Origin: a virus
Taxonomy: Duplodnaviria > Heunggongvirae > Uroviricota > Caudoviricetes
IMG/VR virus record: IMGVR_UViG_3300015157_000063
Coordinates: 1 to 13,930 of that record
Strand: one strand, 5' to 3'
DNA length: 13,930 nt
Position numbers and translations under genes: made by a program
Part shown: in pieces, positions 11,302-11,589 of the stretch
Position numbering within the stretch: position 1 is the first letter of the stretch
Layout: each line of letters starts with the position of its first letter
The notes under the pieces: generated by a model
Seen by the model: only the letters and a program-made list of their open reading frames with translations
Database searches by the model: none
What the model was told of the DNA's origin: nothing

Positions 11302-11375
11302 AGCCTCCTCCCGGGTCCAGAACGCACTCAGCCGGGTATGGTTCAGCCCATTTTTCCCGGCGTCTCATGCCGCAA

Positions 11376-11497
11376 ATGTTAACTGCTGCCTGGTTAACAT
11401 TTGCTGAAAAAGCCTGTTAACATTTTTTCCGCACAACAAACTGAATAATAAAGATAAAAACCGCAAAAATGCCCGGGCAGCCAGTTAACATGTTAAC
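11376..11497. promoter_or_regulatory. cluster of five GTTAAC-centred palindromic repeats in the HNH-TerS intergenic region (candidate cosB / TerS-binding sites)
   Basis: ATGTTAACTG, GGTTAACATTTG, TGTTAACATTTT and AGTTAACATGTTAACTG within ~120 bp, in the position where cos lies in HK97-type phages. Confidence 0.45.
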
Positions 11498-11589
11498 TGC
11501 CCTGAAACGGGAATTTTTTCTCTGCGTGAGAGGGGCGCGGTGTCCAAAGCGATCGTTTTTTACGCCGGATGATACCCCCCCGGGTTGGG

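Follow-up and report, generated by a model that had tools for sequence, protein, structure and literature searches.

The 288-bp gap (11302 to 11589) between the genes for a small terminase (TerS) and an HNH endonuclease in IMG/VR record IMGVR_UViG_3300015157_000063, of which the whole 13,930-nucleotide stretch analysed is here called the window, is most probably the cohesive-end site (cos) of an HNH-dependent phage of the BP-4795/2851/Lys8385Vzw type. Such a cos would consist of a nick module and, downstream of it, a cosB-like array of five oriented 8-mers bound by the helix-turn-helix (HtH) domain of TerS, and a probability of about 0.72 seems right for this reading. An original prediction, made from the letters of the window, had proposed a cos or terminase recognition region here from five GTTAAC-centred sites, and both the sites (11378-11497) and the exact limits of the gap are as it described. 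Signed positions below count from the nick along the gene strand, which is the minus strand of the window.

That the gap is a cos region, and where and of what kind its DNA end is, has been established in a near-identical phage, Lys8385Vzw. Its induced virions were analysed with PhageTerm and gave a cos phage with 3' cohesive ends of 10 nt, CGCCCCCCCT, the 10-nt end being the only part of the element that the published work names (PMC7946995). The Lys8385Vzw record (MT225100.1) encodes a TerS 95% identical to that of the window, has CGCCCCCCCT at its end and starts 229 bp upstream of its TerS gene. The record break ...GGACACCGCCCCCCCT|CTCACGCAGAG aligns to window 11531|11530, and the junction ...GGACACCGCCCCCCCT|CTCACGCAGAGAAAAAATTCCC matches the window minus strand base for base; this alignment makes 11530 the +1 position and 11531-11539 the cohesive-end segment. 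The top-strand nick lies between 11531 and 11530, and the bottom-strand nick is expected about 10 nt upstream, which would leave a 3' overhang. The GC-rich stretch that the original prediction favoured as the nicking site does contain the mapped end, with GAGGGGCGCGGTGTCC at 11530-11545. Its other candidate, a run of seven C, is present one base from where it had been placed (11575-11581 and not 11574-11580), but is not the nicking site since it lies 45-51 nt upstream of the nick, though it is a conserved cos element that HK97 also has. A cohesive-end note in the phi330 record was followed up and discarded; it defined no end, and the record begins inside TerS.

The cohesive-end segment is one base shorter in the window than in nearly all of its relatives, with the 10-nt form found in 76 of 77 IMG/VR relatives (CGCGCCCCCT in 61, CGCCCCCCCT in nine and CGCCCCCCGT in six) and in every more distant relative. 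Over the gap region the nearest relative, 569R3, differs from the window by two single-base homopolymer indels only, the window having C4 for C5 in the cohesive-end segment and G7 for G8 in the G-run. Three complete E. coli genomes with a 100% identical 288-bp gap have the 9-nt form as well, and because of this recurrence the short segment is probably real.

Around the nick the sequence is shared far beyond the close relatives. A comparison of the loci of 22 full-length TerS homologues from other Enterobacterales genera and of further loci recovered by the nick-site pattern gave one common layout in all those loci, namely G-run ... GGACACC-N9 | CTCAYGC(A/G)(C/G)AG-A(4-6)-TTCCCC, with the nick-site sequence standing at a fixed distance from TerS. 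On the left side GATC..GGACACC and TCCGG are invariant over the six loci of the long-gap type, GGACACC is kept across the Enterobacterales loci and a G-run of 6-11 occurs in all relatives, for which a cosQ-like role or one in docking of terminase or HNH may be suggested. The right flank is nearly invariant in all TerS classes and genera, high-GC phages included, and Burkholderia phage vB_E264 retains CTCACGCGCAGAAAA.TTCCCC, as does a group of GC-rich phages. In the PPompW prophages (LC567826.1, PPompW_699, 2775-4233) an IS110-family element, ISEc20, abuts the cos G-run at about window 11578; the order there is Q, tRNA genes, ISEc20, cos and TerS, with the HNH and lysis genes absent and cos and the terminase genes retained.

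The repeats make up the other half of the element. GTTAAC occurs at 11378, 11393, 11416, 11484 and 11492, with just three further copies in the 13.9-kb window, and all five of these sites extend to an oriented, asymmetric 8-mer, ATGTTAAC or its complement GTTAACAT, which is absent from the rest of the window. This 8-mer is the actual repeat unit; the original prediction was right about the five sites, but the 10-mer under which it had announced them, ATGTTAACAT, is a loose consensus that is nowhere complete. The overlapping pair that it had seen, AGTTAACATGTTAACTG, is present inside the 18-bp palindrome of the proximal double site, and distal sites 3 and 4 pair up as a 12-bp inverted repeat whose arms are 9 nt apart. 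Downstream of the nick the layout is +34 (reverse), +40, +108, +131 and +148 (reverse), the candidate sites spanning +34 to +155. Five sites in 120 bp were reached in none of 2000 dinucleotide shuffles of the whole window, and when the gap alone was shuffled 20,000 times the top count was three, seen once, and none reached five; for the 8-mer, not one of 20,000 local shuffles had as many as three copies. Between the proximal pair and the distal three lies a spacer (11434-11470) with gene-strand T-tracts, whose T-richness and ATTCA-N3-TGTT core are kept in all six long-type loci regardless of TerS class, and which is a candidate bend element. The GTTAAC sites might also be taken for HpaI-type targets of restriction or methylation, but what is conserved is an asymmetric 8-mer that no longer reads GTTAAC in two of the three motif classes (B and C, below), and this explanation was dropped.

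Conservation of the array is best seen where its surroundings have changed. The 94 phage-database records of the gap are at least 94% identical and so uninformative for footprinting, with the one exception of Salmonella phage FSL SP-016. Loss of the repeats from intact relatives would have spoken against them, and the opposite is found: every one of 78 close relatives has the five sites, amid flanks that vary. Over 52 distinct upstream sequences variation occurs at 39 of 191 non-site positions and at none of the 38 site positions, a difference (Fisher p = 6e-4) to be taken as indicative only because the sequences are mutually related. In a more diverged locus with the same motif (L086, TerS 65% identical) spacers and flanks are rewritten, and the sites are kept and joined by one extra.

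Most relatives have a short gap in which TerS starts at +40, inside GTAAAC-ATG-TTAAC, so that a near-palindromic double site at +34 to +47 occupies the exact position of GTTAACATGTTAAC in the window. Of 19 such short-gap loci 18 have TTA ACA as codons 2-3 of TerS, with codons 4, 5 and 7-10 variable at the third position, GC-rich phages retain TGTTAA-N5-TTAACA across the same TerS start codon, and in the long-gap phages, where the TerS start is displaced, the second codon is CTG. Fixed codons 2-3 amid varying neighbours, together with the use of CTG in the long-gap genes, indicate that the conserved object is a DNA motif at a fixed distance from the nick and not a coding sequence. Two relatives whose TerS begins ATG CTG have other GTTAA-type repeat arrangements: a Pantoea locus (about 2425-2500) carries GGTTAACC twice plus GTAAACC and GGTAACC between nick site and TerS, and in a Morganella morganii locus (about 2330-2400) four GTTAA motifs lie upstream of the G-run, where the HNH gene ends.

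Features of the cos region and the neighbouring late genes in the window; the gene strand is the minus strand and signed positions count from the nick.
Feature	Positions	Strand	Sequence or product	Remarks
Protease-capsid fusion gene	7412-9016	minus	open reading frame	
Large terminase TerL	9080-10741	minus	553 aa, HK97-like	TerL_ATPase (PF03354) E = 2.1e-11; TerL_nuclease (PF20441) E = 5.7e-9
Small terminase TerS	10738-11301	minus	187 aa	Pfam Terminase_2 (PF03592) E = 1.3e-8
Intergenic gap	11302-11589		288 bp	between TerS and HNH genes
Distal site 4, inverted	11376-11383		GTTAACAT on gene strand	+148; orientation kept in classes A and B and in satellite L345
Distal site 3	11393-11400		ATGTTAAC on gene strand	+131
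Distal site 2	11416-11423		ATGTTAAC on gene strand	+108; invariant in 52 distinct relatives
Spacer, proximal/distal sites	11434-11470		gene-strand T-tracts	A5 at 11456-11460 and 11465-11469; AAA at 11450-11452
IHF-like sequence (integration host factor)	11434-11446		ATTCAGTTTGTTG	one mismatch to WATCARNNNNTTR
Proximal double site	11482-11499		perfect 18-bp palindrome CAGTTAACATGTTAACTG	two 8-mers: GTTAACAT at +34, ATGTTAAC at +40
Right flank of nick site	11509-11530		CTCACGCAGAG-AAAAAA-TTCCC	+1 to +22; A6 tract +12 to +17 (11514-11519)
Cohesive-end segment (cosN core)	11531-11539		CGCGCCCCT on gene strand	9 nt here, 10 nt in relatives (to 11540)
Left flank of nick site	11540-11574		TATCATCCGGCGTAAAAAACGATCGCTTTGGACAC on gene strand	
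G7 run	11575-11581		G7 on gene strand, C7 on plus	-45 to -51 from nick; conserved upstream-side cos element
HNH endonuclease gene	11590-11955	minus	121 aa	Pfam HNH E = 2.7e-7; PHROG 589 E = 1.8e-44
Rz spanin gene	12617-13195	minus		

The presumed reader of the 8-mers is the N-terminal HtH domain of TerS, residues 1-55. Sequence searches of TerS against the PDB gave weak matches only (E = 0.19-0.78), and it was a fold search that confirmed an SF6-like domain: in the AlphaFold model residues 1-55 have a predicted local distance difference test (pLDDT) score above 93 with helices at 4-14, 19-25, 33-41 and 44-55, and the best Foldseek match is the DNA-binding domain of the SF6 small terminase, 4zc3 (target TM-score 0.84, root-mean-square deviation 1.6 Å), with 2cmp and 3zqq matching as well.

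Three motif classes, ATGTTAAC (class A, that of the window), ATGTTTAY (class B) and AGTTACA (class C), track variants of the HtH beside the common GGACACC-N9|CTCAYGC nick site. In the three full loci of class B (L090-L092, TerS P0023) the sites stand at +34 (reverse), +40, +108, +132 and +149 (reverse) and all read ATGTTTAY or RTAAACAT, the double site having changed in concert to TATAAACATGTTTATA; a partial locus (L095, TerS P0033) has the class B motif at its two remaining distal sites, and none of these four loci has GTTAAC in the gap. Class B TerS differs from that of the window by A25E, T32S and V35C, positions that in the model lie in or beside the HtH. The class of the motif does not go with the large terminase, for L090 has a TerL 96% identical to that of the window and motif B, and L086 one 83% identical and motif A. 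In class C a TerS of the form xTEAA...KG(W/C)QL pairs with AAAAGTTACAC (AGTTACA) repeats beside the same nick site. Class B comes from four loci among the TerS-encoding contigs, and IMG/VR searches with the TerS alignment and with the class B TerS P0023 returned class A-like loci only.

The array is also portable, being carried by elements that have the look of satellites. The clearest is L345 (IMGVR_UViG_2563366903_000013, 1-11730), an 11.7-kb element with genes for an integrase, Ash, a D5_N primase, SSB and a lambda gpE-type capsid protein, without TerS, TerL or HNH and followed by a chromosomal pertactin-type gene. At its end (cos at about 10735-10920) are the nick site and five ATGTTAAC sites at +34, +40, +108, +132 and +149, and it is identical to the window at 38 of 38 site bases as against 64 of 100 non-site bases (p = 1.6e-6). 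That an element without terS keeps the array speaks for a packaging signal acting in cis and against a regulator of terS. A different arrangement is seen in E. coli loci L087-L089 (cos at about 1410-1500, TerS at 1501-1989) and in L096/L097, satellite-like loci with a primase (D5_N/DUF5906 or AAA_25) or AlpA, in which a helper-type nick site is combined with a TerS of their own (46-47% identical to that of the window) and AAAAGTTACAC repeats of their own, without TerL or HNH; L087-L089 encode in addition a 307-aa protein homologous to the C-terminal part of a major head protein. The helper relationships of all these loci are putative, as deduced from sequence comparison. L345 resembles the cos-type satellites (P4, SaPIbov5) in having the complete cos of a helper without terminase genes, and L087-L089 resemble the TerS-encoding satellites (the pac-type Staphylococcus aureus pathogenicity islands, SaPIs) in having their own TerS, here beside a helper-type nick site and with the capsid-protein homologue. 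The paper on cf-PICIs (phage-inducible chromosomal islands that form capsids) sums up the corresponding strategies of satellites and held no cos sequence for comparison.

From these observations a division of labour within the gap may be proposed. The nick module, common to all relatives and HK97-cos-like, would comprise the G-run, a left flank ending in GGACAC, the C-rich cohesive-end segment of about 10 nt (11531-11539/40) and the right flank CTCACGCAGAG-A6, and TerL together with HNH would cut there to leave 3' overhangs; the HK97-like nick half of cos fits the shared TerL type and HNH partner. The recognition array would be the five oriented ATGTTAAC sites, with the T-tract/IHF-like spacer parting the proximal pair from the distal three, and HtH domains of a TerS oligomer would bind the 8-mers, probably on bent or wrapped DNA. 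So bound, TerS could hold the terminase on the left genome end and set TerL and HNH on a nick about 35 nt away for the start of packaging, with the G-run side presumably serving the cutting complex and termination. Comparison strongly supports the predicted role of the repeats as terminase recognition sites, through their invariance, the switch of motif with the HtH and their retention by a satellite. A wider proposal is tentative, and at present rather doubtful: that HNH-cos phages of Enterobacterales share a nick module and a swappable code, in which TerS HtH positions 25, 32, 35 and 38 retarget recognition among ATGTTAAC, ATGTTTAY and AGTTACA, satellites either copy cos (L345) or pair their own TerS and motif with a helper-type nick site (L087-L089, L096) to commandeer TerL and HNH, and the site in short-gap phages also permits autoregulation.

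A number of points weigh against TerS binding at five sites in the way proposed. TerS as the protein that binds the 8-mers is deduced from covariation. Classes A and B differ at only three HtH positions, and class B amounts to three distinct sequences and one partial one. Class C TerS has T32 and V35 like class A, and so specificity is not a simple three-residue code. The site spacings of 8, 68, 23 and 15 bp have no obvious helical phasing, and a scan with the IHF consensus found no enrichment (25 found against 18.9 expected), so that the ATTCAGTTTGTTG match is not significant alone. HK97 TerS uses a single 15-bp site at +15 to +29 with an A/T tract within it, read as DNA leaves the tunnel of the ring (PMC11331095), in contrast to the five 8-mer candidate sites reaching +155 in the window, and in the window, too, the conserved A-tract at +12 to +17 could belong to the sequence recognised by TerS. 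The window copy itself may be non-functional, given its 9-nt segment and its place in a deleted prophage.

Quite who reads the 8-mers is the question on which the main competing account turns. They might be a cis packaging signal read by something other than the TerS HtH, be it TerL, HNH, a host nucleoid protein or another phage protein, the tie of TerS to the sites being indirect. HNH also differs by class (L090 is 79% identical to the window, with 83-92% within class A), and the conserved ATTCA-N3-TGTT core and T-tracts suggest that a host factor participates. This account is nevertheless unlikely, in that motif class does not follow TerL, satellites with their own TerS and neither TerL nor HNH carry their own motif beside a helper-type nick site, and a host reader would leave three motif classes in one host species unexplained. 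Less probable again is that the repeats regulate terS, as operators or promoter elements, or by folding of sites 3 and 4 or of the 18-bp palindrome into a hairpin in RNA or DNA. The inverted repeat and the palindrome do exist, a weak promoter-like match at 11394-11423 (+), the only one in the promoter scan, is composed of the motif itself, and in short-type phages the double site overlaps the TerS start codon after the Shine-Dalgarno sequence, so that autoregulation by TerS is conceivable as an added role. Yet satellite L345 retains the whole array with no terS downstream; the direct copies (+40, +108, +131) switch together with the inverted ones, which recognition by a protein explains and a hairpin does not; Rfam gave no match and a terminator scan found nothing; and the RNA fold of +1 to +229 is unremarkable (z = -1.54). 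Lambdoid late genes are moreover transcribed as a long late operon in which no local promoter is needed.

The remaining accounts give the repeats no present function, or one unrelated to packaging. They could be relics, copies of an ancestral TerS start (ATG TTA ACA) left behind after an insertion of about 190 bp before the present GTG, and the proximal double site is indeed positionally homologous to the short-gap start-codon region, with the old Shine-Dalgarno GGAGGG decayed in the window to CAGGGC. Relics would decay, however, and variation is confined to the flanks (0/38 site against 39/191 flanking positions); the sites survive in L086 and L345 despite strongly diverged flanks, all five copies changed together in class B, and TTA and ACA are fixed at codons 2-3 even in GC-rich phages, where it is the DNA motif and not the coding that is conserved. 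A relic origin is therefore strongly disfavoured. It is harder still to credit that the ATG in the double site opens a real 24-codon open reading frame, MLTGCPGIFAVFIFIIQFVVRKKC, ending at the TAA of site 2 and encoding a small hydrophobic peptide or leader. The frame has 24 codons in both the window and L086, but it has no Shine-Dalgarno sequence and stops after 14 codons in L090, and its hydrophobicity follows from the T-tracts as its constant length does from the conserved 68-bp site spacing. Overall a cos with a TerS-read array remains the favoured reading of the gap.

The surroundings of the gap are those of a late operon, with all relevant late genes of the window (Rz, HNH, TerS, TerL and protease-capsid) on the minus strand. 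Cos and the terminase genes follow directly on the HNH gene, an order found in the relatives also, where the counterpart of the HNH gene is annotated as an HNH or homing endonuclease; TerS starts with GTG and has GGGAGGAGG ahead of it. The region is 95-99.5% identical to many Shiga toxin (Stx)-converting and related lambdoid phages, among them BP-4795, phage 2851, YYZ-2008, Stx1a and Stx2c phages and vB_EcoS-569R3, and of 5426 complete E. coli genomes 1244 contain the gap sequence, in up to seven copies each (median two).

The prophage in the window is a deleted, defective and non-viable E. coli prophage. A junction near 7415 (window 7321-7420) joins the capsid gene to the end of the region of the tape-measure gene; to the left the sequence matches the tape-measure end and minor-tail M/L region of relatives, and to the right is the protease-scaffold-capsid gene, its frame being 534 aa long here and 645 aa in phage 569R3. 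Some 9-10 kb is missing, and with it the remainder of the capsid gene, the other genes of the head and tail shaft and the greater part of the tape measure. As the prophage is defective, its cos could act only in trans with a related helper. Elsewhere in the window a DUF3950 / PHROG 949 gene of no assigned function (11937-12197, plus strand) lies between the lysis genes and the HNH gene, on the opposite strand within an otherwise one-directional late operon, and is present in relatives too. Two Caudo_TAP tail-fibre assembly genes stand face to face at 3127-3660 (plus) and 3691-4218 (minus), a gp37-like fibre C-terminal fragment (2340-3125, plus) lies opposite the main fibre gene (4234-5892, minus), and such a layout, around 2340-4218, is what an invertible or duplicated fibre-tip module typically shows. 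A gene with a methyltransferase domain is found at 1063-1731.

The kind of element, and the cohesive end of the family, are known; the repeat array is not yet described for this common Stx-phage family, in that a search of open-access papers found neither the double-site sequence nor the array, the specificity classes or the satellite copies. The family to which the cos region belongs, that of Shiga-toxin-converting and related lambdoid prophages, is a major one, and the bases of the packaging signal together with its classes predict which prophages, remnants and satellites a helper mobilises, which bears on the spread of stx and of satellite genes. Classes A, B and C offer a natural series for working out the reading of DNA by a TerS of the SF6 type within a cos system, and GGACACC-N9|CTCAYGC with the 8-mers is a signature for setting genome ends in annotation.

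The closest counterparts are Lys8385Vzw, BP-4795, 2851 and the Stx1a and Stx2c phages, which have the same HNH-cos-TerS-TerL module, a gap 95-99% identical and the five sites, and from the Lys8385Vzw group the window differs in its 9-nt CGCGCCCCT in place of 10 nt and in the lost head and tail genes. In phage lambda cosB consists of R3, the IHF site I1 and then R2 and R1, with R2 inverted, and among lambda, 21 and N15 cosQ and cosN are shared while the R sites are TerS-specific, complex and simple forms of cosB occurring within the family (PMC4669245). The window is like lambda in placing several short TerS sites (candidate ones in the window), with inverted orientation among them, between the nick and the TerS gene, and a bend element (again a candidate in the window) between proximal and distal sites, and in that specificity lies in cosB with cosN common to the classes and complex and simple forms coexist. 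The TerS gene starts at +230 from the end in the window and at +191 in lambda, likewise about 200 bp from the end. Lambda is unlike the window in its 12-nt 5' overhangs, where the relative of the window has 10-nt 3' ends, in the use of gpA alone with no HNH partner, and in gpNu1, a winged-helix protein unrelated to Terminase_2; the motif sequences are unrelated too, and a role of IHF is only suggested for the window. The resemblance to lambda cosB is functional and architectural and not one of family membership.

With HK97 it is the cutting side that is held in common. An HNH gene lies directly upstream (gp74 in HK97), TerL is of the same Pfam type, the overhang is 3' and of 10 nt as in the relative of the window, a G-run (G9 in HK97) followed by (T)ATCA lies about 45 nt upstream of the end, ACCGC(C/G) occurs in the cohesive end (ACCGCCGCC in HK97) and an A/T tract follows the nick, these nick-side sequence resemblances being short and judged by eye. 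The short-type relatives are like HK97 also in having the TerS start near the end, at +40 as against +50 in HK97. The HK97-like setting of the original prediction thus stands for the nick-site side of cos but not for TerS, which belongs to another family than HK97 gp1, having matched only Terminase_2 with an SF6-like HtH of the SF6/SPP1 type. HK97 gp1 is a P27-family protein. The G1P proteins of SPP1 and SF6 are, like TerS of the window, Terminase_2 proteins with an N-terminal helix-turn-helix domain, and recognition in SPP1 involves several repeated boxes and DNA bending. SPP1 and SF6 are unlike the window in packaging by headful (pac), with no defined cohesive ends or HNH, where the relative of the window packages from cos with 3' ends. 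The element thus joins parts that are each known already (cutting as in HK97, cosB logic as in lambda, a reader domain as in SF6), and it brings no new principle: it is the logic of lambda cosB re-used on a cutting module of the HK97 type.

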